From positions 70,432,001-70,496,000 of the forward strand of contig OZ024744.1 in assembly GCA_964016885.1 (NCBI GenBank): DNA of 64,000 bases. The letters run 5' to 3'. This DNA comes from Eledone cirrhosa (lineage: Eukaryota). This document shows, piece by piece, positions 11,460 through 52,388 of this stretch. Numbering within the stretch: the first letter of the stretch is position 1; every line of letters starts with the position of its first letter. Made by a program: the position numbers and the translations under genes. The notes beneath the pieces were generated by a model. That model searched no databases. It was not told where the DNA came from and saw only the letters and a program-made list of their open reading frames with translations.

Positions 11460-12020
11460 CTCACATACACACACCTAGCCTCCGGACTCCACACGCCCCC
11501 TCACCTCCACCTCCTCGGACCCCTCTCCATCCACACGCACGCACACACCGACTTACACCCCACCCCATGTACACACCGGTTTCCCCAATACCTGAACATG
11601 GAACCTAGTTATTCCCCCAACTCTCACATTCACATCCACACACACACACACACCACCTTCAGCCCTTCCCACTCGGACCCCCATCTCCCTCTCCCCTCTC
11701 CACCACCTCCCTCCACCCACTACCACCCCTACACGCCTCACACCCTTTCACCACTTGTTTCATTTTAATTTTATTCACCCTCTAAAAAATTATTTTTTCC
11801 TCCCTTTTTCTCCCCTCCCCCCTTTTTAATGTCTTTCCACCACTCCCCCCAACACCCTCGGAACTCTTTTCCTGCCCACCTTTCTCCTGATGAAGGGCTT
11901 ATTCCTGAAACGTCATCCCCCACCCTCCACTCTCAAGCGTGAAACTAATATTAACATTTTGTGCTGCCTCTTCGCTTCCACGTTGTTGTTTTTTTTTGTT
12001 TACTCTTTCAACTATACTAT
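11460..12020 (+). mobile_element. PLE 3' remnant with a loop-less hammerhead core
   Basis: C-rich region followed by CTGATGA-AGG-gcttatt-CCT-GAAA-CGTC at 11887-11914; stem I not intact. Confidence 0.55.
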
Positions 12021-19050: not shown

Positions 19051-19194
19051 AGATTATGTAGACCAGGTAGATAGGTATAAATGTATGCATGGTATGTATA
19101 TGTATATATGTATATATGTATCTATGTGTGTATGTTTATATGTATGTATGGTGTAAATACTTTTGTTTTTGCAGCAAATGTATATATGTATGTA

Positions 19195-22176
19195 TGATCT
19201 GTGTTACCAACACCATGTTCCAACAAAAGAACAAATTTAAGACCACATGGATGCATCCTGCATCTAAGGAATGGCATCTTTTGGACTACGTCCTAGTCAG
19301 GATGCGTGACAGACAGGATGTGCAGTGTGTTCGTGCTCTTCGTGGAGCTGAGTGCTGGACAGACCACCGCCTGGTACACGCAAAAGTGAAACTAATCACT
19401 AAACGTAAAATCCGGGCTCCTGGTGTTGCCCTGCCCAGATGGTTGAATGCTGCTCGTCTTAAGGATAAAAATGTGAAGAGGACATTGCAAGAAGAGATGC
19501 AGGCTGCAGATCTTGGTGAGGATTGGCCGACCCTTAAAAAGTCGGTTTATGATGTAGGCAGGCGTGTTCTGGGATTGGTGCAGAGAAAACATCAGGACTG
19601 GTTTAATGAGAATGATGTATATATAGAAGACTTGTTGGCTGATAAGAGGCGTGCTCTGTCACGCTACTTGACGGCAAAACCACAGGAGAGGAATACGTTG
19701 CATGAGGAACTCAAGGATGTGAAATCACGTGTTAGGCGGAGTCTTTCTCAGGTGAAGGATCGGTGGTGGAGTGAGAAGGCTGATGAGATACAAACTGCGT
19801 CAGATTCCAATAACACAAAGCTGTTATACAGTCTCTTGCGTGAAGTTTATGGGCCGTCTTCTCTGGTGACACCGCTTCGCAGCAGGGATGGCAAAGAACT
19901 TCTTCGTGACTCACAAGGAATTCTACGAAGGTGACGAGAGCACTTTGATGATCTTTTGAATCAGCCGTCTGTCGTCAATGAAGATTTCCTCAATCTCATT
20001 CCAGAAAGTCCTGTGAAAGTAGCTCTCGCACAACCTCCGACGCTTGTGGAGGTTGCAGTGGCTATTTCGAAGCTGAACAGTGGAAGGTCTCCAGGTATTG
20101 AGCTCCTACAATATGGTGGTGAGAGACTCCTGTAACATCTTCACTCTTTGTTTGGCAGGATATGGGCTAATGAATCCGTACCTGAGGACTGGAAGGATGC
20201 AGTAATGGTGGTCTTGTACAAGGGAAAGGGTAACATGAATGATTGTGGGAACTACAGAGGTATATCATTGCTTTCTGTCGTAGGGAAAGTTTTATGTAGG
20301 GTGCTTCTGGACCGTCTGCTGACACACATTGCAGATTGTGTTCTTTCTGAAAGTCAATCTGGGTTTCGTGCTGGACGCGGCACTACTGATATGATCTTCT
20401 CAGCTAGACAGCTCGAGGAGAAGTGCATGGAACAAGGTTTGGATCTGTATCAGGTTTTTGTCGATCTGACAAAAGCTTTCGATACTGTTAACAGAAATGC
20501 ATTATGGAAGGTTCTCCAGAAACTTGGTTGCCCTGATAAGTTCCTTGCTTTAGTTAGGTCTTTCCATGACGACATGAAGGCTTGGGTTAATGTCGGAGGT
20601 AATATATCGGAGCCTATCTCAGTAAAAAATGGAGTGAAACAGGGGGATATTCCAGCACCAGCCCTGTTTGCCATATACTTTGCAATGCTTTTCTATATTG
20701 CATTCAGGAATTTCGAGCATGGTGTTTACATCCGATATCGAACCTCATGCAGCATATTTAACATCAGGCGCTTTGCTACAAAAACAAAAGTATTTACATC
20801 AATCATAAGAGACCTCTTGTATGCAGATGATTGCGATCTTGTAGCGCACACACAGAGTGATATGCAGCATATTTTGAATGTATTTTCTGATGCTCGCACT
20901 GCCCTAGGATTGACTGTCAGTCCAAAGAAAACTGTCGTAATGTACCAACCTGCCTCTGGTAAGTACTACACTGAACCAAATATCTATGTGTATGGTAAAC
21001 GACTTGGAGTGGTTGATCAGTTTGTCTACCTGGGAAGCACTGTCAATCGATACAGCAACCTTGATAATGAAATCCCACTAAGGATTAGGAAAGCAAGTGA
21101 TCCTTTCGGAAAGCTAGAAAGGCGACTCTGGGGTGGCGAGACATATGCAAGAAGACAAAGGTAAAGGTGTACAAAGCATGTGTGCTCTCTTCTCTTCTTT
21201 ATGCCTGCGAGACCTGGGTCACATATCGACACCACCTTAAGCAATTGGAGCGTTTCCATCAGATGTGTCTCAGACGGATCCATGGCGTTCACTGGAGGGA
21301 CCACATCAGTGATGTCGAGATTTTGGAAAGCTCTATGTGTGACAGTATAGAAGCTCTTGTGCTTAAGCAACGTCTCCGTTGGAGTGGTCACCTTGCCAGG
21401 ATGAAGGATTCTAGAATACCAAAACAACTCTTTTATGGAGAGTTAGTTAAAGGAAAACGACTGCCGCATAAACCAAAAAAGAGGTATAAGGATTCCTTGA
21501 AAGTCTCTTTGAAAGACGCTAACATCTCTGCTGATACATGGGAAAATGTTGCTGCTGATCGTAATAAATGGAGAGAAAGACTGTATATGCGGCAAAAGTT
21601 GCCTTTGAGGCATCTCAAATCGCATACGAGAAAGTAAAGCGGGATGTGAGGAAGGGCATTGCTGTTGCACTTCCAGACGCGGCGAAGGTCCTCCTATGGT
21701 GCTGACATGCAGCGTCTGTGCGAGACTCTGCCTAAGCAAAGCTGGACTCGAAAGTCATCTTCACAGTCATAAAGTAAGACCAGTGGTTGACTACCAGGCT
21801 GCTGTTGGAGATGCTACTCATCATGCTTGCCAAGCATGTGGTAGAGAATGTAAATCAGCAGGAGGGCTCAAGCGACCTGCAAAGGTTCACGAACTCCAAC
21901 CACAGCCGACTATTCCCAGTGAATGTTTTGGTTGCCGACTCTGTGCAAGACATTTTAGATCATTAGCTGGGCTAAAAAGCCACATTCGATCGCAGTGCTG
22001 TTAGTTGCTATCGTGTGTATGTGTATAGATATGTTTATGCGTGTGCGTGTGTGTGTATATATATATGTATATTATTATTGTTGTTATTATTGTTGTTATT
22101 ATTAGTATTCTTGTTATTATTATGTTTGTTTTTTTCTCGTGCAATGGCCATACTCGATAAAAAGAGGGCAGCCATC
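19195..22176 (+). mobile_element. RTE-clade LINE, 5'-truncated and disabled (APE C-terminus, RT, three C2H2 zinc fingers)
   Basis: TWMHPASKEWHLLDYVLV..TDHRLV (APE); NYRGISLLS, FVDLTKAFDTV, GVKQGD, LLYADD (RT); LRWSGHLARM; stops at 19932 and ~20133, frameshifts at ~21135 and ~21600; (ATGT)n tail. Confidence 0.95.
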
Positions 22177-33278: not shown

Positions 33279-33472
33279 TAATATAGATGAGATTCTACAG
33301 GACTAGAACTGTTTCATTCTTTAGAAATCATCAGAGATTCCTGATGATTTCTAAAGAATAAAACAGTTCTAGTCCTGTAGAATCTCATCTATATTAAAAC
33401 TTCTATACTCTGCTATGTATTGAGTACCTTACTTACTGTGGTTACCTCCGATTCAACCCGGAATAACTTACC
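33279..33472 (+). mobile_element. Fold-back element, family D, with complete type I hammerhead topology (33334-33386)
   Basis: GAGATTC-CTGATGA-tTTC-taaa-GAAt-AAAA-CAG-ttctagtc-CTG-TA-GAATCTC; G12 is mutated on the + arm but intact (GAAA) on the mirror arm. Confidence 0.8.
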
Positions 33473-35810: not shown

Positions 35811-36142
35811 ATATATTTGTCTGTCATATTGAATACTCAACAACATATATGGGGATATTTTCTTTCCACAAAATCAAATTTCACTTTGTTTCGATGTGGT
35901 ATTCAAATCTTCCTAACTTGATTAGGTAGAATACTAATGAATATTTTTTATCTGGGTATATACTAATCAATTCATCCATCAATTTCTTTGTCAATCTACG
36001 TATCTATCTATTTATATATATATATCTGTTCGTTGATGTAACTATTACTGTAACAACATCATTAACAAACAATTGATTATCCTTTATTAACTATCCATCT
36101 AATATTTTTTTCTCTCTTTCTTCCTCTCTTTCTTCCATACAG

Positions 36143-36993
36143 ATCAGACATTTGGAGAAGTTAACCAACTCGGAGGAGTGTTCGTTAACGGCAGGCCCCT
36201 ACCAAATGCAATCAGAATGCGAATTGTAGAGCTAGCACAGCTGGGAGTCAGACCATGCGACATAAGTCGACAACTGCGAGTCTCACACGGATGTGTGAGT
36301 AAAATACTCGCTCGATATAACGAAACGGGATCAATATTACCAGGAGCTATTGGTGGAAGTAAACCAAGAGTAACAACACCTAATGTCGTCCGACATATCA
36401 AAATTTACAAGGAAAAAGATCCAGGGATATTCGCCTGGGAGATCCGAGATAAACTCCTAGCAGATGGAATTTGTGATAAATTCAGCGTCCCGTCAGTGAG
36501 TTCTATCAGTAGAATTCTTAGAAACAAAATTGGAAGTAACAGCAGTAATAATATTAATAATAGTAATAATAACAGCACTTCTGTCCATTCACCTAATCCG
36601 CAATTTGAGCATAAAAGTGTAGCCCCTTCTACGCCGGCTACTGCTCTATATAATCATCAATTTTATCCCTACACATGCCCAGGCGGTCAAGGAATTTCTA
36701 CAATTCCTGGGGTTCCAGCGCCTCAAATTTCTTCACAGGCTGCGACCCATCATAACCATATGAATGTTAATATTAAGCAGAATTCTATGTCGTCTGTTAC
36801 CCCTTGCATGATGAGAGCTTGGCCCTCTTCTCATTCTGTGAGTGATATTTTAGGGATAGGTGTACGTCAACCTTTATCAATGGCCCAAACAGGTCCTTCT
36901 GCGCATATGGAGACGGCCCTTGGACAAAATTATAATTATTATGGAGTAAATATAAAAGCCACGGCGGTGTCACCAATGTTTCTACAAAGTTGA
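36143..36993 (+). CDS. Pax9: Pax1/9 paired-box transcription factor, main coding exon (start codon lies in an upstream exon)
   Basis: Polypyrimidine tract plus CAG acceptor at 36140-36142, phase 1; reads [74 protein letters not shown]...SISRILRNK; octapeptide [12 protein letters not shown]; no homeodomain; TGA at 36991-36993. Subfamily Pax1/9 (single invertebrate co-ortholog). Confidence 0.96.
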
Positions 36994-37053
36994 ATTAAAA
37001 TTTCTATCCTCAAACATTTTACACATATATATATATATATATATACATATATA

Positions 37054-37099
<46 letters not shown>

Positions 37100-37168
37100 T
37101 AGATATATATACATAAATATATGTAGATATATATATATGTATGTATATATATAAACATATAAATGTAC

Positions 37169-37254
<86 letters not shown>

Positions 37255-37499
37255 TAATTGTTTATTATTCTACCCTAAAAATGATCTTTTAAAAGTTTTG
37301 AAAGAATACAACATTTCGCAAATGTATTTTTATAAAGCTGATCAGAAAAATCTCTCGTTTCAACACATTTTAACTGTATGTTCTTTACGCAAGAGGCATC
37401 CCTAGAAAATATAACCAATGCCATTATTGAAATGTTACTAAAATCGCTCTTGATTTTTAAAAAAACAGATAAGTTTCTTCCTTCAACTATCTCTGAAAA

Positions 37500-40400
37500 A
37501 ACTCACCTTTAAAAACTACTATAATAAAGAATTGGCTTTCAGAAAAAATGAAAAGCTGTTATCATGAAAACAACAAAAAACTGCTGAACTTGCGTTTTTG
37601 GTTTTTTTAATCTTAATCGATATTCAAAAGCAGAAATGTTTCCCTAATAAACAGAAAACTGGCATAATTTTGGTTAAAATTTCAGGTGAAAAATCTGCCG
37701 TAATGTGAGGATATCCATTATTTTTTACGCCCAATAAAACAATTAAAAAAAATGAAAAATCCTACGTTAAAACTTTGGGATATAGTTCAACCTATTTAAA
37801 AGTCTGCGAAGACATAAAAAAAAATCGAATGTTTTACACAGCGTGTGTAATACATAAATATTTTCACAAAACTGGATTTAAAATTTTGTGTCAAAAGTTT
37901 TTATGGAAAGAAAGATTGTTAAAATATCAGAAATATTCGGTGTGTTTCAGCATCATATTTTTTAAAAACTGTCCTGAAGAGCATTGCATCAAAAATATTA
38001 AAAGTTTGAAATTACGAGGAAAAAGTTTTTAAATTTGGAAATACTGTGCCAGCAATTTTTTAAATATATACAAAATGAATTGTTTAACCTAAGTGACAGC
38101 AATTTTAATAAATCGTGTATATCCGGCGATTCTCGTCAATATATTTTTTATAAAACTAATCTGAACAGTAATTTTAAATATGTATTTATATGTTTTTAAA
38201 ATTACACGTAAAAGATTAAAAGGATTGAAAATATCCCCGCAATTTTCAATACTCCGCGAGAAAAATTTTTAATAAATCGCCGATAACCGGTGATTTTTGC
38301 CAATGAATTTTAACAAAACTGATTTGAAAAACAATTTTATGATATGTTCAGAATTTTTAGAAATTGCGGGGAGAAATTTTAAAATTCAAAAATATGACCA
38401 GCATTTTCAAACCTTTGTGAAATCAATTTCTTTCTTAAAAGCCCTGAAATATTCAAAAAGAACTGTCTTGAAGAATATAGTTAAAAAAAATGTTATTTAA
38501 AACAACGTAAGGACTGTTTTTTTTTTTAAGAAAACCGAAATTTTCCAGATAAATACAAAAAAAAGAAAATGTATAAAAGAGAAAGAGTTCGCATTTTAAA
38601 ACTCCCTCCTCACTCCAAAAAAATATTGCTATGAGGCGAGCCTGTCTTTCAGCACATTTATGAAATCCGTCCATAAGTGTCAACATTTAAAATATATATA
38701 TTCCAGAATTTGTATTTAAATCTATGCGATTTTATGATTTAAAAAACGTTTCCCGAAAAAAAAGAAAACTGTTATAAAATGTTGGCCTGTTATTTGATTT
38801 ATAAAAGATGCTTTAATCCTCTTTTTATATCATAGTTGATTTTAAAATTAGAAAATTTTCCATCTAACAGATTTTATAATGCAGACTTGGTTTTCAGGGG
38901 GCGGGGGTGGATTAATCGCAATAGATGGAAAAGCAAATGACAACGGAATTCACAGAAAATGATAACCAACAGTGCAGGCTTGTCCTGTTTGTTTGTATCA
39001 TTTTCTTTAAAATCATAAGTGACTTTGAAAAAAAGAAACGTTGTCCCGAAAATGGACCCCCCCCCCCATAAAACTGCGATAATTCAAGCTTGACTATAAT
39101 GTTTTGTTTTTTTTTATTTGCATTATAATTGATTTAAGAAACAAAAAAGTTCACAAAATAAAATGCTATAATATAGGTTTGGTTTCCAGAGCAAAACGAT
39201 CAAATATATATAAAAGTTGATATAATGCAAGTTTGATTTCTAAAGGAAGAAAACAGAAAAAACTTAAATTGCAGGTTAGTCTTCCAGCATATTCTTTAAA
39301 TCCGTCGACATCTTTTTCCCAAGCATGGCTTTTCGTTAATTAACACAACACAAAGAGGACTGGTCATCGTAGAAATGTTTAAAGAATCCAACATCAACAA
39401 TTGTTAAAATATAATTCAGAATTATATTATTTTTTTTTTAAGCTGTGCGCTTAAAAAATGTTTCTAATTGCAATTTATAATTTAAAAAATGTCAGTGAAA
39501 AGGAGATCTCTCCTGTAAAAAAATTGTTATAATGCGGAATTAGCATTAAAAGAAAAAACAATTTGCTAAAATGCGGTTCTGTTTTTAATAAAAGAAAAAC
39601 AAAACAAAAAAAACAGAAAAATCTCCCCAGAGCAGAGAACCAATAAAAACAATTGCTACAATGTGTCATTCAGCCCATTCTTGGAATCTGCCCACAAATG
39701 TTTTCATTTCTCTGGTGGACATAATACTTGATCAAAACAGTTCAGTCGTGGAAGAAGAGAAGAACTTATTGTCAAAGACTTGTTAAACATAATTCAACTT
39801 TTTAAATTGCGAAAAAAATCATGATTTATAAACAGAAACGTTTACACGAAAAGAATAAACAGAAAATGCTATAATGCAAGCTTGTACATGTTTTCAAAAC
39901 GTAAGTGATTTTTAAAAAAAAAGAATTTCACAAAAGCATGAAAAGCTACTATAAAGCTAGCTTCTCCTTTTTCTTCAAAAATTCATAATTCATTTCTCAA
40001 AGTACAAAGGTCTCCTCTAAAAATAAGGCGCCTCAAAACTGCTAAAATTCATTATTCATTTTATAAAATAAAGGTTCTCACTAAACAAACTGCTTTAATC
40101 CGAGTTTGTCAATTTAAAAAAAAAGATGTTTTCTAAGGATCGTAAATCATTCAAATACAGAAACACATCCCCAAACTCCTATAGTGCAGGCTTTGCTTTC
40201 AGGAAAAACAGAAACAACTGCTATGATACGAGCTTGTCGTTTTATTTAATAGCAATTTGGTTTAGAAAAGCAGAAAATACGGGCTTGTCCATTTTTAAAA
40301 AAATCAAAACCGAAACATTTTCCAAATAAACTGCTATATTGCAGGCTTGTCTTTCAGCACATTCTTGAAATCCGTCCACAACAGTTGTTATACAGGCCTG

Positions 40401-42220
40401 TTCTTTAGTAAGATTTTTCTTCTTTTTTTTTTTTAATCGTATTTGATTTTAAAAAAACGGAAAAATTTCCTTTGCAAACGCTGCCAAAGTGCAGACTTGA
40501 CTTTCAGAGAAAAAACAAAAAACTGCTGTAATGCGTGTCCTTGAAAAAAAAAATGACTCGTAATTGATTTATGAAAAAAGTTCACAAAAAAGGAGTACGT
40601 CTCCTAAAATGTGAATATATTCTTATCAGAAGACTCTAGTATCAAGAATTGTTAACGATATATCCACCATGCTTTTTGCATTCAGTGGATATATCCCATT
40701 ACCATTATTTTCAAGTGCCTAATTTTCATACAAAGAAATAAATAATATTTTCTGACAGACATTCTGCGGTATGTTAGGTATACATTAGAGACTATATTTC
40801 ACTGAAGAGGTCTTATAAGACCGAAACATATCCCGAATTTCACTATATATATTTTTTTTTTTTTTTTTTTTTTTGCTGTTTAATCAGTGAAGAAAAAGCA
40901 GTGCCCACATCCCTTTTCAGGGCCTCCAAACCTGATGGGAGGGAGAGAGGGAGGAAGATATCCTCAAACCTCAGACCCGGCCCGAATGCTTGCAACAGAA
41001 TGGACTCCGCTAAAGGCACCCTAGAGCCAGGTGGTGGTGTTAAATCGAGTACAAGATTAAGTCAGCCATCCCAAGTAAGCTACAACGAGATTTTAGTTCA
41101 GAACACTCAGCGCCGAAACAAATGCATTCTTTGGTGGTAGACGTAGTCTGTCTCCTCGAGTGCCTTTAGTGGGGTCCACTCTGTTGCAAGCCTTGTCTCT
41201 GGTGTGAGGATGACTTCCTCCTTTCAACCCATCAGTTTCGGACACCCTGAAATAATAAAAAAAATGGGTGATACGCGTTGCTCTTTGCTCTCTATCTAAA
41301 TGGTAAAAACAAAACTAAAATACTATGCTTCACTGAAGAGGTCTAATAAAGCCGAAACATATCTGGAATTGTCACTATAACTAACAAAAATCAGATAGTC
41401 TCCCATTGAATGTGAGTGTCTCCCCCATTTAATATTTAGCCGATTAAAATTTCAGACTTTTCTCTTTTTCTTTGATAATTATTGTCATCTATTAACCCAA
41501 ATGAGATTTTTTTTCTAATTTTTTCTAATTCTCTTTGGCTAACTACATTAAATACGTTAGCCTGCATAAAACTATATGTTCTTCATGCAGAAGGCGCCCC
41601 TGGGAAATTTTCAAACGTCATTTTTTATTAAATTACCTAATCAGTGAATAATCAGTGAATAAATTTTCATACAAAAGTTGCATCATCTCGAAATTATTCT
41701 TTAGTCAATTTAAATATCAGATAACTCTTTCTCTTGTCTTTCGTTTTGAAAAGTCTTGTAATTAACGCTAATTACTTAGTGTAGATTTATTTTATTTTTT
41801 GTATTTTGTTTTTTGTTTTTTTGTTGCTTTTTGGTTGTTTGTTTTTTGCTCACTATACTGCACATTTGTCTTTCAGAAAGAAAAAAAAACGCTATAATGC
41901 CGGTTATTCTTATAGTTAATTTATTTTAAAATTTGTAATTGATTTTTTTTAAAAAGCACACAGAAAAACCGGCAAGAAACTACTTTGTGGGCCAAGCTTT
42001 CAGAGTAAAACAGAAGAAAAAAATGCTATCATGTAATTGTTTTTTTTATAATTAAAAAAAAGCAATTCCCCTTACTATCATTACCACTACCACCTCCACC
42101 ATATAAAGGACGATGGTGCGTGTTTAGCTTTCGTGGAGAAGTAACGCAAAAAAGCGATAGTGCGGGTTTGGTTATTAAACAAACAAAAAAATCTTGCTAT
42201 AATGCAAGCTTGTCTTTTTT
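37500..42220 (+). repeat. Degenerate dispersed ~22-nt motif array AAACTGCTATAATGCAGGCTTG
   Basis: Variants near 37513, 39071, 39161, 39864, 40216, 40328, 40520, 41888, 42195 and others, with irregular AT-rich spacers. Confidence 0.65.
40791..41378 (+). other. Two direct hammerhead-like repeats flanking a rod-like inverted repeat (retrozyme-like candidate)
   Basis: CTGAAGA-GGTCT..CC-GAAACATATC at 40802 and 41333; inverted arms about 40915-41026 and 41155-41252. Confidence 0.55.
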
Positions 42221-42493
42221 CTATAACTTTAATCAAGTGTATTTTACCATAGTCACGTGAGTGAAACTTGGTAGAAAGAAATTATTGGGTGGCTTGTACC
42301 TGTAAATCGTAGGTCCATCCTTGTCGCACACTGTGTCTTGTTGATTTGATTCCTTCTGAGAATTACATTAAGTATGCATGTGTCTATGGAATACTCAACC
42401 GTTTACACTAAACACAATGAATATGCAGTTCCTTTGATCGAAAAGTGAAACCTTAACCGTTCAAATCAATACAGACCCATCTATAGTATAAAT

Positions 42494-43036
42494 CAGAGGT
42501 TCTCAAACTTTTGGGTCCCCCCCCCACCCCCCTCACGTCCACGTAATACTCTCAGCGCTCCTACCCCTATATCCAGAGAGATCTGCCTACACATAAATTG
42601 TAAATAATACATAATAAATAAAATCGTTAATTTATATATAATAAATAATTGTTTCTACTTTAGGCACAAGGCCAGCAATTACCCAGTACATTACTGGTAC
42701 TTTATTTTATCGATGAAAGGCAAAGTTAACCTCGGCGGGATTTCAACTCGGACTGTAAAGGGACGTAACTATGCTAGAAAGCATGGCGTCCAACCCTCTA
42801 CAGATACTGCCAATTAACCGCCCTATATATAATAAATAATATAATATATATATGTATGAATAAATATTATATATTTGTTATTTTACTATATATATATATG
42901 TATCATTTGATATTTAATATAGTATTATATCATCTCTACCCAGCACCCCTAGACCTTCTCAACGCCAACCCCCCCCCCCCCCCCCCAACCCCCCATCCCG
43001 GGGTGAGGGCGGTAGCGCCCACTTTGGGAACTTCTG
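42494..43036. mobile_element. hAT-type MITE with nested SINE (42647-42825, -)
   Basis: TIRs CAGAGGTTCTCAAACT / ACTTTGGGAACTTCTG; 8-bp TSD GTATAAAT (42486-42493 and 43037-43044). Confidence 0.88.
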
Positions 43037-44202: not shown

Positions 44203-44252
44203 CCATACCGAGAACAATTGTTTCACCTTAGCGGATCCTCAGCTCGTAATGG
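44203..44252 (-). ncRNA. Minimal type I hammerhead in the PLE 3' pseudo-LTR (mirror copy 46277-46326, +)
   Basis: CGAG-CTGAGGA-tCC-gctaa-GGt-GAAA-C-AATT-GTT-CTCG; palindromic loop III. Confidence 0.85.
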
Positions 44253-44411: not shown

Positions 44412-46085
44412 TCAATCCGGAGCTTTGTAGTTATGTAAGAGGTGTTTCCAGACGTGTGGACAGCGTGTGATGAATTCATTTCTCGTGTTTAGGCAATCAC
44501 TATTGCGTAATCTCTTTAGAATATTTATTCGTTCATCAATACATAGCACACACGACAGATTGCCCCTTGCGTATGGCTTGGACTTAGTAATGGCTTTCCA
44601 TTGAATGGAGTAGTCTATACTTGAGTCCTTTAGGGACCATACGTGGCTCGCGATTTTCGTGGATGAACGTCTGTCCGGGTACCTAAAGGTCGACTGGTGG
44701 TTCAGGAAGCGTTCCTTAAATCGGCCCTCCGCCATACCCACATAGGATTTGACCTCCTGTGGTTGATTTGGTCGGTTGGAAGTGACCACAACTTCATAAA
44801 CTACAGCGGGTGTGTTGCATTGCTGTTGAAGGGGACAAGCTTCGGGCTTACGGCAAGAGCACCCTGGTGGGGTGTTGCTCTTAGGGCTGTTGGTGATGTG
44901 GGCCTTCATGTTCTTAGCGCAGGAGTATACTAGTTTTACTTTGTGTCGGTTAAAGATGAAGCGGTATTTATGACCTATGGGAAAGTGTCTATCTAAGAGG
45001 GCTAGAAATGTTTTGCCTACATTGGTTTTAACGTTGAGCGAGAAGGGAGGGGAGAACCAGATAGTTTGTCTATTGCTACGCTTTCTTTTCTTATTGCTAT
45101 TGTTGTTAGTGGGAGAGTAAGTGATAGGTTGCGAGAAGCCGCTGTTAGCTAACACCGTGTTATAGTAGGGTGCCGCCCTGTCAAAGATAGCCTTATTAGA
45201 GGAGAGGTTTGAGATTCTAGTACTGATATTATTTACGAAGTTTCTAAAAACAGTGGGAGGGTGGCATGAGTCCTTGTGAATGTAATTGAGTTTTTCGTTA
45301 AGCTTATGGAAGTGTCTGTAGGTGTGTGTGCGAAGGTCTAAATTAATGTCTAAGAAATATACGCTAGAGAGGTTGGTAGCTACTGTTATCGTAAGGCCTA
45401 ACTCATTGAAGGTAGAAGCTAAGTCTTTTTTAAACCGGTCGAGGTCGTGACCACTTTTATGGCTCGATAAGGTCAGTCCATCGTCGCGGTATATTCCCGT
45501 GTGGAAGTCCGGGAATCTAACACGTAATATGTCTAAGATAAAAAGGCCAACCAGGTCGCATACGTCAGCACTGTCAAACGATCCGATGGAGACATCAAAT
45601 AGGTCTGAAGTTGTAGACTTCTTTGCCCAGGCTACTCCGTTGTTGAAGAGGAGGGTTTTCCGGCAGTGAGCGATGATTTCCCTGTCTAAACCATCGACGG
45701 TAGTGTAAGTGGTAGCAAAGTCCAACGCTTTGTTTAACAAAGAGATCGGCGGGTAAAAATCAACAATGTCAAACTGTGTGAACTTCGCTTTTTGGGATTT
45801 GAAGGAGTTAAACCACTTAATTATGGAGTCGCTGTTCTCCCACTGGGACAGGTTGGACTTGGTCCTAATGGTCTTAACTATGTTTCTAAGTATGGCCTTA
45901 CTGACTCGTCCCATATCTGTGCGTGCCGGGTTTATTAGTCTACATGTGGGGTTAGAAGTAAAGTCTACATTGTGATCATTCAGGGTGAGGAACGTCTCCC
46001 GCTTAGCTAGAGATTGTAGCTGCTTATCTACCTTAAAGTCGGCGGCAAGTTCTTTGGCTTCTGTATTAATGTCGTGGTAGGCCAT
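44412..46085 (-). CDS. PLE reverse transcriptase + GIY-YIG endonuclease (N-truncated, frame open)
   Basis: FTQFDIVDFYP, GIYRDDGL, FLDINLDL, IWFSPPFS, CSCRKPEACPL..VVYE..SYVGMAEGRFKERFLNH, CVLCIDE..LNTRNE. Confidence 0.92.
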   Translation of the reverse strand: MAYHDINTEAKELAADFKVDKQLQSLAKRETFLTLNDHNVDFTSNPTCRLINPARTDMGRVSKAILRNIVKTIRTKSNLSQWENSDSIIKWFNSFKSQKAKFTQFDIVDFYPPISLLNKALDFATTYTTVDGLDREIIAHCRKTLLFNNGVAWAKKSTTSDLFDVSIGSFDSADVCDLVGLFILDILRVRFPDFHTGIYRDDGLTLSSHKSGHDLDRFKKDLASTFNELGLTITVATNLSSVYFLDINLDLRTHTYRHFHKLNEKLNYIHKDSCHPPTVFRNFVNNISTRISNLSSNKAIFDRAAPYYNTVLANSGFSQPITYSPTNNNSNKKRKRSNRQTIWFSPPFSLNVKTNVGKTFLALLDRHFPIGHKYRFIFNRHKVKLVYSCAKNMKAHITNSPKSNTPPGCSCRKPEACPLQQQCNTPAVVYEVVVTSNRPNQPQEVKSYVGMAEGRFKERFLNHQSTFRYPDRRSSTKIASHVWSLKDSSIDYSIQWKAITKSKPYARGNLSCVLCIDERINILKRLRNSDCLNTRNEFITRCPHVWKHLLHNYKAPD

Positions 46086-46390
46086 AGGGTTAGCTTTCTT
46101 ATATTTGGAAGTAATAGCGTTATGGGCCAGGTGGCGGAAAGTGGTGTTGTTGACTTCGGACTTTCGCAGTTATCTCCCTTACACCTCTCGCACGCAATTT
46201 AGTATTGCCTGTGTGAAGTGATCGTTTCTGCGCATGCGCGTTCGTACGGTTGACTTCCTGTTCCGTATAACCATGTCCATTACGAGCTGAGGATCCGCTA
46301 AGGTGAAACAATTGTTCTCGGTATGGTGAACTAAGTGTTGTGTAACCACTTATATATATACATATATATATATATATTTGGCATATACCA

Positions 46391-48228: not shown

Positions 48229-51200
48229 TTTGTTTCTTTATTAGCCACAGGGGCACAAAAGAAGGGGACAAATACAAAGTGGGAAGTTTACATACAATAA
48301 AAACGTGTAAAATGTTATCACAAATGCAATTTAAAAAATTAGTCGATTTTCCCGAATAGGGGGAGACAGTTCATATGGGTAACACATACCCCCGAAAAAA
48401 TGTGCAACACTCATCTCCAGGAGTACGAAGAGTTTGTACTCCTTTCCTCTCCTCCTCCTTTTCCTCAACCTACAGGCTGATATAGAGAGAAGGCCCATTC
48501 ACTCGGGCCATTCTCGCTACTTTCACCCACCTTTCATAAAACTTGCTGGGGTACAACACCTCTCTCTCCATCCTGATTCTTCTTCCAAAGTGGTATTTGA
48601 AAAAAAGAATCAGTTGTTGGCCTGGAGAGAAAGGTGTCTGACCTCAGCCCTTTCAACCTCGTCCACCATACAACCTCTTTCGCCATAGCTATCACACAAA
48701 GGAAAACCGCCTCTCCTTCGTTTTTGAAGGAGGGTGGTGGTTTGATCATGACAATGGACTCGGTGGTCAACCGGATTGGTCCCACCCGCGACAATAGTCG
48801 TTCTACATAGCCCCACAGGTCAGTGACGCCCGGGCAGTTTATGAATGCGTGCGCGACGGTTTCTTCGTTACGCACGCACCTCGGACAGATCTTTTTTGCA
48901 GGGTCCCTGCCCGGGCGCCCATGTCTGTAGAGCTTGTCTCGAACTGGTAGAGCTCCTCGGTAGTACTGCCAGGCCAGGGACTTTTGGAAGTTGTCCATCG
49001 GTCCCGGGTGGAAGATCCTACCGAACAGACTGGCCAGTTCATCTTCCTCTACGCCTATAGTTTCACCGAGCGCGTCGTCGCACTTTCTGCGGATCAACCC
49101 TCTATAGAATGACGAAGTGGAGTCTCCACTGATCGCGGGGTCCGCCTGCCAGAGGGCTGTGAGCGCCTGAGCACATTCAATGTGCCAGTCGCCCATTTTC
49201 CTCGGTCTTTACTTGACCCAGGACTGCAGCTCGGTCAGCGAGACGAGTCGTGGGAAGGCTCGCCTCACGAATGGGGCCCACACCGGTTGTCCGGTGAGGA
49301 ATACGTAGAGATGCCGCAGCCTGAGCGCGTGATTGCACATCGTCAACCACGGCATCCCCAGCCCTCCGTTAGAAGGGTGTTGGCAGCAGATGGATCTTCT
49401 CACCAAAGGAGCCCGCTTCTTCCAAAGGAATTGGAAGAGCGCGCGGTCCATTTTGGCGAGCGTTTTGGCTGGACAAGGCACGACGGTCAAGCGGTAGTAG
49501 ATGGCGGACGCTATAAAAGTGTTCGCCACCTCCGCTCGACCTTTCAAGGATAGTTTGCACTCGGCCCACTTCTGGGTGAGTGCAAACACCTTGGCCGTCA
49601 CTTCCTTCCAGTTCTTCTCCACCTGGAGATCCGGACCAAACCAGACCCCGAACAGCTTTACCGGTCCTTCCATCCAGCGTCCGACGACGCCATCGGTAGG
49701 CATCGGTTTGCCTCTCCACGATCCGAGTTGCAAACCGATGGACTTGTCCCAGTTCAGCTTCGCTCCTGTGAAACTTTCGTATTCCTTCAGTAAGGTGTCG
49801 ACTTCCTCGATTTGCGAGGCGGCGACACCATTACTGTCACGTCGTCGGCGTAGGCCGACGCCGATTTCCGCAGTCCCGGTTCCAGAGGGATGCCCTGCAA
49901 TAGCTCCAACTTCCGCAGTAGTGGTTCGAGAATCAGTACGTACAGAAGGGAGGAGAGAGGGCATCCCTGTCGAATGGATCGCGTAATATGGAACAGCTCC
50001 GAGAGGTAGCCGTTCACCTTGACCCTTGAGCAGATGTTGCTGTTGTGCATTGCAGCAATCCAGCTCCTGAACACGGGTCCGAAGCCTGCCGCCTCGAGCA
50101 CCGCATCCAGGTAACGATGGTCAACCCTATCGAAAGCCTTAGACTGATCCAAGTTGATCAGAGCCCCACCGAAGCCGGGTTTACACCCTACCCTCTCTAT
50201 GATGTATCGCATGAGGTGGAGGTTGTCGTGTATGGACCTGGTCGGGATTGCGCATGTCTGCGCTTCTCCCACCAGGTTCCCGACGACAAGCGCCAGCCTC
50301 TTTGCCAACACCTTGGCCAAAATCTGTGAATCTGTGTTTAGCAGAGTTATGGGCCGGAAGTTGCCTATGTCATCCCCCTTATTTTCGTCCTTCCTGACTA
50401 GTGTGACTACGCCCCCGGTTACAGAACTGGGAATTCTCCCGTTCTGTTGCCAGTTGCAATAGACCGCTTCCAGGAGACCGGAGAATAAGTCCGGCATTGC
50501 TACGTAAAATTCGTAGGGTAGACCGTCGAGACCTGCGTTTACCGCATTGGCTGAGCGCGTCCCCTATCTCAGCGGCTGAAATCGGCTTTTCGCAGAACTT
50601 TGCCTCGCTGTCCGAGAGTCGCGGTAGGCTGTCGAGGTATGGACCGAAATCCATAGCCCCTCCCGGCGCGCCGCCCCGCCCGAACAGTTGAGCAAAGTGC
50701 CGCTGAAAGGCCGCACACATCTGCTTCGGCTCACGTATCACGCGTCCGTATTGGTCCTTCAAAGACCGAATCGTAGACTTGTTGCCACTTTTTGCCTCCG
50801 TCACTTTTTGCCAGCTAACAGCTTTGGCTCCCTCGTTTCCCAGAGCACGTATTTTGCTTCTGACAACGCAGCCCTCGTGCTTTGAGTCGAAGAACTGGTC
50901 CAAGGCAGTTCTCGTTGCTAGCACGCTGGTTGCGTTGCTACTTCTAATTGCCTCTTCTACTTTATCTACCAGTTCCTTCTCGGTTCTATTTCTATCTAAC
51001 GCTAATTCTTGACTAAAAACTAACGAGTCTAATCTAACTGCCCTCTTGAGAGAGTACCACCATCTGTTGTTGACAATGGCCTCTGTCAAATGCTGTTTAA
51101 CTAAAGTGCTAATCCGTCTACTGTAGGCTTTGCATGTCGGTAACGACAAGTTCAGCTTCAAGTAGCCGAGTCCTTGTCTATGGGTTCTATCAAGGTTGGC

Positions 51201-52388
51201 CATGCAGGTCACTAGTTTGTGATCTGAATAGGCAACCATGAACATTTGTGGACAGCTTAACATGTCCCTATCCCTATTTCTAACTAGAACCCTATCTAGG
51301 TACGATCTAGATGTTCTGCTACGATTAATCCACGTCCACAGTGGCACAGTCGGAAAATCTAGTCGATATCTATCGTCCAGGTCAAATCGGTCGATTAACT
51401 GTTTGAGGCTGTTACACCCCCCTTTATCGGGACATGCTCCCACATAGTCACAACGTGCTTCTAGGATTCCATTTCAGTCCCCCACTAAAAGCAAGGAGCA
51501 GAAAAGTCTCTAGACGTTTGAAGAAGTCTGGCCGTGGTGTCCCGGATGGGGCATATGCAGCCACCAGCCTGAAGGCTCCACCTTCACTACCGTCAACGTC
51601 TAGGACCACCAGTCGACCCTCCGGGTCCAGATGTACCGTCTGTATTACGAGGCCCAGGTGTTTTCGCAGCAAAACGGCAACCCCGGCCCCCACCCCCCGG
51701 CCGACAGAGAGATGCGTAGATCTCAAAGTCATCGAAGATGGGGGCTAGCTGTCGCTCGCTGTGGATCATGGACTCGCAAACGGCTACTACATCCATACTG
51801 TGCGACCTGAAGTCGTTTAAGAGTTTGCCCTGTTTCCAGGGCATCCCCAGGCCGCGTACGTTCACACATCCAACTCTTATATTGGCCATGTTGGTGCTGA
51901 AAAGTTAAAAGAGGAAAAGAAATCACTCACCCTTCGTCTCCTGGGGACCAGGCTGCACGATTTCCATGGGGGTGTTGGGGGGTTGTCTGGGTGGGTGTTG
52001 GTTTCCGGCGGGGTGGGGACGGAGATGTTTGGTGGGGTGGGGTCTGGTAGGATGGGGGTGTCTGGGGTGGGGAGACATTTGAGAAGGACGCGGTGATGTG
52101 GTTTCACGCAGGAATTCCCCACATCCTTTTCAAATGTTTCTTTTAGGGGCCTATAAGTTTGTATAGGGACCCTAATCAGTTTTAGGTTCAGTTTTTTGTT
52201 GTTTTTAATAGAGTGGGCGAAAGTTTTCCCTTCGGTTTTCACCGAAGGGTTGTTCGTGATGGTCTCCATTAGTGTTTTGTTTTCAGTGTTTATGTAAGTG
52301 TAAGTGTAATTTTCTTGTGTTGTGTTTGTTTTTGTCTGTAGTTCTTGTGTGTGCTTTCGTTTTGTTGTAGGTATTTTGTTTTCAGGAG
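48229..52388 (-). mobile_element. Tx1/L1-clade non-LTR retrotransposon, near full length, frameshifted
   Basis: APE (VGCVNVRGLG, SYLDRVLV, YSDHKLV), RT (NFRPITLLNTD, LDQSKAFDRVDH, IRQGCPLS, AYADDVTV), zinc knuckle CPRCVRNEETVAHAFINCP; short ORF1-like region at about 51900-52270; AATAAA near the 3' end; (GATA)n on both flanks. Confidence 0.93.

Follow-up and report, generated by a model that had tools for sequence, protein, structure and literature searches.

What is a stretch of DNA that carries two hammerhead-like repeats in direct orientation, folds into a rod between them and lies just downstream of a Pax1/9 gene? An initial annotation of the window (the 64,000 nt of Eledone cirrhosa contig OZ024744.1 analysed here, to which all coordinates refer) read it as a retrozyme or viroid-like unit with a 531-nt monomer. 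Our analysis suggests that the 531-nt unit is most likely a one-off piece of transposon debris, in which two SINE copies stand back to back inside a decayed hammerhead repeat near Pax1/9. The feature is real and its parts are ordinary; it is the geometry that is unusual.

The two direct repeats are present as first described. They span 40791-40847 and 41322-41378 on the plus strand, are 57 nt long each and 86% identical, start 531 nt apart, and both contain CTGAAGA and GAAACATATC. A 17-mer from the core occurs twice in the window against 0.36 occurrences expected. Each repeat is a decayed type I hammerhead core, and repeat 1 is likely the left copy of a 57-bp target duplication. In repeat 1, CTGAAGA (40802-08) is followed by helix II (40809-22), GAAA (40823-26) and a would-be cut site after C40832; the would-be cut site of repeat 2 lies after C41363. 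Directly 3′ of repeat 2 is the body of an old hammerhead-repeat family (41379-41626, plus strand; E = 6.2e-29 with a body profile built from 37 other loci). This body is present only after repeat 2, with no profile match between the two repeats.

The imperfect inverted repeat reported between the cores does pair, with arms at 40985-41024/41155-41194 (85% identity), 40950-40981/41190-41221 (78%) and 40915-40953/41214-41252 (74%), but its description as GC-rich holds in local terms only (43% G+C for the 531-nt stretch versus about 33% in the surroundings). The 531-nt stretch folds as a rod on either strand (-181 kcal/mol, z -7.2 for the plus strand; -188 kcal/mol, z -8.1 for the minus strand), far more strongly than shuffled sequences, bearing out the rod fold that had been proposed. 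The layout as first drawn overlooked a 23-T run at 40852-40874 and an A-rich run before repeat 2, both of which are SINE tails.

To determine what the rod consists of, we compared the whole 601-nt unit with the 3.0-Gb genome. Among the best 40 of 1621 candidates, the sole full-length match was the locus itself and the 39 other places matched only query positions 60-341 (the left half) at 71-83% identity. Each of 29 fetched loci holds one arm, with right-arm matches falling on the same bases as left-arm matches. No intact hammerhead motif was found at these 29 loci, and a hammerhead-family match was present within 1.5 kb at one of 48 SINE loci, where it was not flanking. Aligned with each other, the copies form a dispersed element with an A-rich tail, and fuller copies have a head bearing A-box-like and B-box-like motifs, recognised by eye (ARAGORN predicted a tRNA at 0 of 7 loci). 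The element has the properties of a SINE, being dispersed, high-copy and non-coding, with an A-rich 3′ tail and 5′ truncation.

An nhmmer profile made from 48 other copies gave two matches that tile 40853-41321, so that inverted SINE copies make up 469 of the 474 nt that separate the repeats. The left arm of the rod (SINE copy L, 40848-41125, minus strand, E = 3.7e-78) is 5′-truncated and covers profile positions 113-381, and the 23-T run next to repeat 1 represents its poly(A) tail. The right arm (SINE copy R, 41124-41321, plus strand, E = 8.3e-38) is likewise 5′-truncated, covers profile positions of about 157-376, has a 24-nt and an 8-nt deletion and a 12-nt insertion, and ends in an A-rich tail that stops at repeat 2. 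The 5′ ends of the two copies abut at an 8-nt palindrome (41121-41128), with an overlap of 2-3 nt and without a spacer. A 15-mer SINE motif has 765 exact matches genome-wide (the sum of counts of 373 and 392), compared to 11 for the control. An exact genome-wide pattern for two such motifs head to head within 450 nt recovered this locus only; rarer head-to-head pairs would be missed, because the pattern needs both motifs intact and 16 of 48 copies carry one. An earlier head-to-head pattern had given 133 matches, mostly one unrelated palindromic repeat, and among 15 loci fetched from these, two (L104 and L113) held one SINE arm only.

Other repeat arrangements were seen in passing. The palindromic repeat that makes up most of the 133 pattern matches (loci L100-L114) is young and has long inverted arms, and near-perfect palindromes of another short repeat, also present in the window, occur at L017 and L126:930-1030. 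Head-to-tail tandem SINE copies exist in the genome (loci L026 and L056), and a tail-to-tail pair of SINE fragments lies at L116:853-1161. At the 48 other SINE loci, which are old copies and offer low power, we found no target site duplications (TSDs) above controls except simple repeats. The window also contains a broken RTE-type LINE with a C-terminal zinc-finger-like stretch (19071-22004, plus strand) and a second LINE-like element with reverse transcriptase (RT) and endonuclease (48534-51904, minus strand), both recognised by eye from ORFs; no SINE-tail profile match was found at the RTE element. A loosely repeated 30-nt motif family occupies the AT-rich DNA around the feature (about 38600-42220).

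The rod is a by-product of the inverted SINE copies, and no signature of selection on its pairing was detected by G-U strand bias, covariation or shared derived changes. Its 169 paired columns comprise 117 Watson-Crick pairs and 24 transversion mismatches, and G-U pairs number 14 on the plus and 14 on the minus strand. Derived changes are shared between the arms at 5 of 160 sites (3.1%), compared to a background of 3.3%. Random head-to-head pairs of family members folded at least as well in 23 of 60 cases, with an energy of -171.6 +/- 21.5 kcal/mol against -177.6 kcal/mol for the rod. In our view, the rod is very likely a pair of SINEs rather than a retrozyme monomer. The initial annotation had itself pointed to an inner repeat occurring elsewhere as an independent MITE as evidence against its reading; the inner repeat does occur independently elsewhere, as a SINE and not as a MITE, and no copies with the same repeat-rod-repeat layout were found in the genome besides this locus. 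Could the rod still be a MITE with CAGGG...CCCTG terminal inverted repeats, which we take to resemble hAT ends? The outermost inverted arms do start and finish with these letters. However, the letters are internal SINE sequence and the pairing extends beyond them as far as the tails. An 8-bp duplication is lacking and the genome yielded no further two-armed copy; these points effectively refute a MITE and leave it a negligible probability. A viroid or deltavirus-like RNA was also rejected, as there is no covariation or strand bias and the cores occur on the plus strand only within the 531-nt stretch.

The repeats themselves are hammerhead-derived, as proposed, and come from a retrozyme/Penelope-like family in which the type I motif and helices are present in the majority form. 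A search with repeat 2 identified 18 other places at 80-94% identity (20 of 20 candidates), and a search with repeat 2 and its 3′ flank gave 41 matches. The unit of this old family is about 330 nt long and consists of a type I hammerhead followed by an AT-rich body of about 270-290 nt, with no ORF; in the majority form, helix I is 6 bp and helix II 5 bp long, and the core and a short helix III are present. The hammerhead assignment was made by motif. Rfam gave no hammerhead match in the region at E up to 5 and likewise none in 12 family loci, which makes its silence at the region uninformative. The palindromic helix III loop form is found in 9 of 30 other copies and the mismatched form of the window in 11 of 30, a query-enriched count. 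Ten of the 30 other copies keep the core motif and none of these 10 keeps G10.1-C11.1. A stricter genome-wide pattern matched 10 sites (control 0), seven of them family members and none with all helices perfect. Most fetched family copies are solo or inverted, with inverted pairs at L034, L038, L074 and L090. One tandem dimer was seen (locus L040, 1461-2055; period 331 nt, 74% identity), and at locus L123 (1479-1700) the old hammerhead core is tandemly duplicated (112 nt, 94.5%) without an insert. No ORF of a Penelope-like element (PLE) was detected within 1.5 kb of family loci by tblastn with one PLE query. Judged from these copies, the parent family, which is old, decayed and mostly solo, fits a fossil-like non-LTR retrozyme or PLE pLTR kind. 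A fragment of the family body without a core lies in the window at 37369-37432.

Self-excision requires that the cores can be cut. According to the initial annotation, no clean NUH site plus stem I could be built for either copy; this was too pessimistic, as UC at 40831-32 and 41362-63 is usable in a type I topology. With this correction, helix I can be built as 4 bp plus a mismatch in repeat 2 and remains broken in repeat 1, where A-C and C-C mismatches take the place of the first two pairs, adjoining the cut site. One mismatch is present in helix II of repeat 2, and helix III has a C-A mismatch at the second pair in both repeats, giving a dimer helix III duplex of +1.0 kcal/mol versus -4.6 kcal/mol for the palindromic form. 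In a 631-nt context, the pair probability is 0.0 for helix I of both copies and for helix II of copy 2. All catalytic residues and G10.1-C11.1 are retained in both cores, compared to 0 of 30 other copies, although this comparison is subject to ascertainment bias. As helix I is broken, there would be no cut at C40832 and hence no 531-nt monomer, and the ribozyme of the would-be circle would be broken as well, because the 5′ strand of copy 2 must pair with the 3′ strand of copy 1. From these models the composite is predicted not to self-excise and to yield no circular RNA.

A retrozyme or viroid-like unit would have its tandem hammerheads cut out the 531-nt monomer, which circularises into the rod. 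Two cores in direct orientation that retain every catalytic residue, and the z of -7.2, are what such a unit should offer, and repeat 1 is one of only two exact core-plus-helix-II matches in the genome (control 1). Canonical metazoan type I hammerheads with a short helix III need a second copy and cleave as dimers (PMC4209133), and the hairpin would bring the two cores together. However, the helix III mismatch affects both monomer and dimer, helix I is broken both at cut site 1 and in the would-be circle, and a complete type I hammerhead in two consecutive units is not present. Neither the best 40 of 1621 candidates nor the head-to-head pattern revealed a second copy of the unit, its interior is an independent SINE family, and the pairing carries no sign of selection. 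Non-LTR retrozymes are tandem units of 150-450 bp with type I hammerheads that are expressed as circles (PMC7229834); set against a range of 150-450 nt and under 45% G+C, the stretch is too long at 531 nt and falls within the range of composition at 43%. The lack of an Rfam match adds only weakly, given the 12 silent family loci. The claim of a retrozyme monomer with a selected rod thus does not hold for this unit, and we regard it as very improbable.

How did two SINE copies come to lie between two hammerhead cores? We think that a single two-ended SINE insertion that duplicated the hammerhead core is the probable origin. The target would have been an old solo hammerhead repeat, in which an endonuclease left nicks on the two strands, staggered by 57 bp across the core, and each 3′ end would have primed on a poly(A) tail. 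The templates may have been two separate RNAs ('dual priming') or a single read-through RNA containing two copies in tandem ('twin priming'). The resulting cDNAs would then have joined at the short palindrome 41121-41128, and fill-in would have duplicated the 57-bp core. Both arms belong to one SINE family and meet flush at their 5′ ends, and their tails touch the two repeats. This is the layout of dual or twin priming, with tails outward and flush to one target duplication and a 5′-5′ junction with microhomology; the dual priming product has been described as having its tails out, one TSD and internal microhomology (PMC2837659), and opposed truncated L1s, each with a tail, are known from tumours (10.1101/2024.08.27.596794). 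One monomeric RNA cannot have made both arms, because both derive from the same 3′ part of the element, with differences at 47 of 160 non-CpG sites (29%). The nearest core to repeat 1 among 31 is repeat 2 (50/57, 88%), followed by one at 45/56 (80%), and the two repeats share three non-majority bases plus a retained CpG.

Several observations weigh against a single event, and the unusual length and low divergence of the repeats argue for caution. At 57 bp, the duplication far exceeds the usual length of target duplications, most of which are 20 bp or shorter (PMC6007223), and the 48 other SINE loci revealed no long flanking duplication. The repeats differ at 7 of 57 sites (95% CI 5-24%), a divergence below twice the SINE terminal branches of 0.17 and 0.24 (P = 0.0065 and 0.0001). 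As the repeats are too little diverged relative to the arms, their ages can be reconciled only through subfamily effects, gene conversion or templates that had already diverged. Upstream of repeat 1, homology to the family does not exceed background (-3.6 bits versus a random mean of -4.0), which leaves the duplication with an anchor on a single side. In an ML tree of the 57-nt cores, which lacks resolution, the two repeats do not form a cherry and the next neighbour of repeat 2 is 86% identical. No close source copy of the arms was found among the best 40 of 1621 candidates (closest 83%). Our literature search found no account combining head-to-head SINEs, a TSD and twin priming, and none on long TSDs of RTE elements. 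Very long TSDs of C. elegans RTE-1, unconfirmed in that literature, are not used as evidence here.

The same parts could also have been assembled stepwise, either with the core duplicated first (by tandem duplication, or as a tandem dimer that lost its first body) or with one SINE and the duplication first and a second SINE inserted later at its 5′ junction. Both kinds of starting material exist, in the 331-nt tandem dimer (L040, 74%) and the 112-nt core duplication (L123, 94.5%). The arms differ in non-CpG divergence (16% and 25%), and Alu elements insert beside existing elements, with close head-to-head pairs in excess (PMC3215922). Stepwise orders leave the age mismatch no better, though, and would have to account for tails that are flush against the repeats and for a 5′-5′ junction with neither a spacer nor a clear second target duplication. 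From the motif counts of 373 and 392, about 0.02 chance head-to-head pairs within 440 nt are expected per genome, a weak argument as the locus was selected. Taken jointly, the two orders are possible and on the unlikely side.

The Pax1/9 coding exon (36142-36993, within a paired-box exon at 36103-36993, plus strand) contains the paired domain, the octapeptide, and a conserved C-terminus and stop. Its ORF aligns end to end, including the stop, with an Octopus bimaculoides-labelled protein (89%) and Patella Pax-1. As the stop of the exon closes a conserved C-terminus, it is taken as the true stop codon, which places the feature 3.8 kb downstream, in agreement with the approximately 4 kb first given, and the hammerhead cores are on the same strand as Pax1/9. 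If transcribed, the composite would form a long hairpin and be a likely ADAR substrate, with no circle. The debris could have been co-opted in a long Pax1/9 3′ UTR, where an ADAR-edited hairpin or weak cleavage by repeat 2 would tune the mRNA. The shared strand and the position 3.8 kb past the stop would suit such a role, as would the retention of all catalytic residues and G10.1-C11.1, unlike in 30 of 30 other copies (with the same ascertainment bias), and 3′ UTRs and repeats are enriched for editing in coleoids (PMC9068888). The absence of a selection signature on the pairing and the zero pair probability in context for helix II of repeat 2 and helix I of both copies make co-option improbable. 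A fuller scenario, in which germline dual priming from two different SINE RNAs created a viroid-like layout in the Pax1/9 3′ UTR, with two cores at the foot of a 200-bp hairpin that is ADAR-edited and in which repeat 2 cleaves weakly, is as a whole similarly doubtful.

Four sequence runs from one study, of unrecorded kind (X1-X4), were compared as contigs. In their long contigs, X1, X2 and X4 show the assembly sequence over the region. No joint between the two repeats was among the 15 joints listed (185 more were unlisted), which has no bearing on a circle or an empty allele. Pieces of run X3 (88 million letters; depth of 10-19 in this region) cover 37283-41646, but X3 is blank at 41700-41884, where the other runs continue. 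One reading is that X3 is RNA and ends close to the AATAAA at 41658, one of 17 such sites in 36990-42700; it is not used as evidence. An A>G difference at 41000 is present in X3 (another sample), apparently in its 797-nt contig over 40885-41646, whereas the long contigs of the other three runs have the assembly base. A41000 faces C41179 in the rod, an A-C mismatch being the kind that ADAR favours, and G is the SINE majority base; editing and an allele are both possible. The same 797-nt contig bridges the would-be cut site at 41363.

A second hammerhead family was identified at locus L126 (1-807, minus strand), where 310-nt units lie in tandem and are 99% identical. Its hammerhead has 6 of 6 pairs in helix I, a palindromic helix III and a U-U pair at the base of helix II. 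A 36-mer from this family has 815 exact matches (control 0), and the 310-nt monomer has a fold z of -3.7 and 34% G+C. Among the first 100 listed of the 815 matches, a minus array followed by a plus array was found at 14 of 20 loci. In 16 fetched loci (L132-L147; 14 picked for this minus-plus layout and two not), nearly all arrays are in (TA)n and end at one fixed unit position, the 3′ end, and most have a 26-34-nt extension at the other end. The arrays hold 1-11 listed units and are mostly head to head (L142 is incomplete and L146 has one arm). Insertion into (TA)n, a fixed end and an extension are hallmarks of Penelope-like elements (PMC8557442). On these sequence features, the 310-nt family, and not the 531-nt unit, is plausibly the candidate active retrozyme of this genome, with Penelope-type insertion.

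Further hammerhead-like sequences occur in the window. A Penelope-like element at 44412-46169 (minus strand), with a 585-aa ORF in which RT and a GIY-YIG-type endonuclease are recognisable by eye, is flanked by inverted copies of another hammerhead motif at 44242 (minus) and 46287 (plus). Hammerhead-like cores of other families lie at 11887 (plus), 25661 (minus), 33334 (minus) and 47972 (minus), and the cores near 33334 and 47850 resemble the young 310-nt family.

The composite is a tidy false positive for screens that look for two hammerheads plus a rod, and such screens need, as a control, to compare the arms with known dispersed repeats. For the mechanism of insertion the composite is of modest value, as a candidate case of dual priming in nature: the report that proposed dual priming could not separate it from twin priming (PMC2837659), and the arms here are long enough to reveal two distinct templates. 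Should dual priming have produced an edited, weakly cleaving cassette, retrozyme-like or viroid-like cassettes could arise in one step from debris. The young 310-nt family bears more directly on whether Penelope-like elements mobilise animal retrozymes.

Among known systems, L1 twin or dual priming (PMC2837659; 10.1101/2024.08.27.596794) is matched by the poly(T) at the left duplication and the poly(A) at the right, and by truncated copies joined 5′ to 5′ with short microhomology. It differs in that the templates here are SINE-like and 29% apart over the same 3′ region, the duplication is 57 bp long and the setting is a mollusc germline. As in inverted Alu pairs (PMC3215922), head-to-head copies of one SINE family would give a long RNA hairpin, but the SINE family is another one and there is no spacer, compared to a spacer peak of 24-36 bp for Alu. 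The arms share dispersal and A-tails with octopus tRNA-derived SINEs (OK, OR1, OR2, Nin-domain; names in part from PMC4824008) and the A-box-like and B-box-like head is common to very abundant repeats in the window, although the likeness is to this general kind and not to a named consensus, and ARAGORN found no tRNA at the seven loci. The parent hammerhead family differs from an autonomous Penelope-like element, as an ORF with RT and GIY-YIG was not found within 1.5 kb of family loci. It resembles PLE pLTR hammerheads (PMC4209133, PMC8557442) in its type I topology, 6-bp helix I, short palindromic helix III and inverted pairs at four loci, and differs in that tblastn with one PLE query recovered no PLE ORF remnant nearby. 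Besides PMC8557442, we found no literature combining hammerheads, Penelope-like elements and octopus, and the words 'octopus' and 'cephalopod' are absent from the main text of PMC7229834, whose supplements may list cephalopod hammerheads. Non-LTR retrozymes have been argued to derive from Penelope-like elements (10.64898/2026.07.22.740005). The 531-nt unit is unlike metazoan non-LTR retrozymes in being single-copy, with a SINE interior and broken helices, and its parent family is unlike them in being old and mostly solo; the likeness lies in that family's type I hammerhead, its ORF-less AT-rich unit of about 330 nt and its one tandem dimer.
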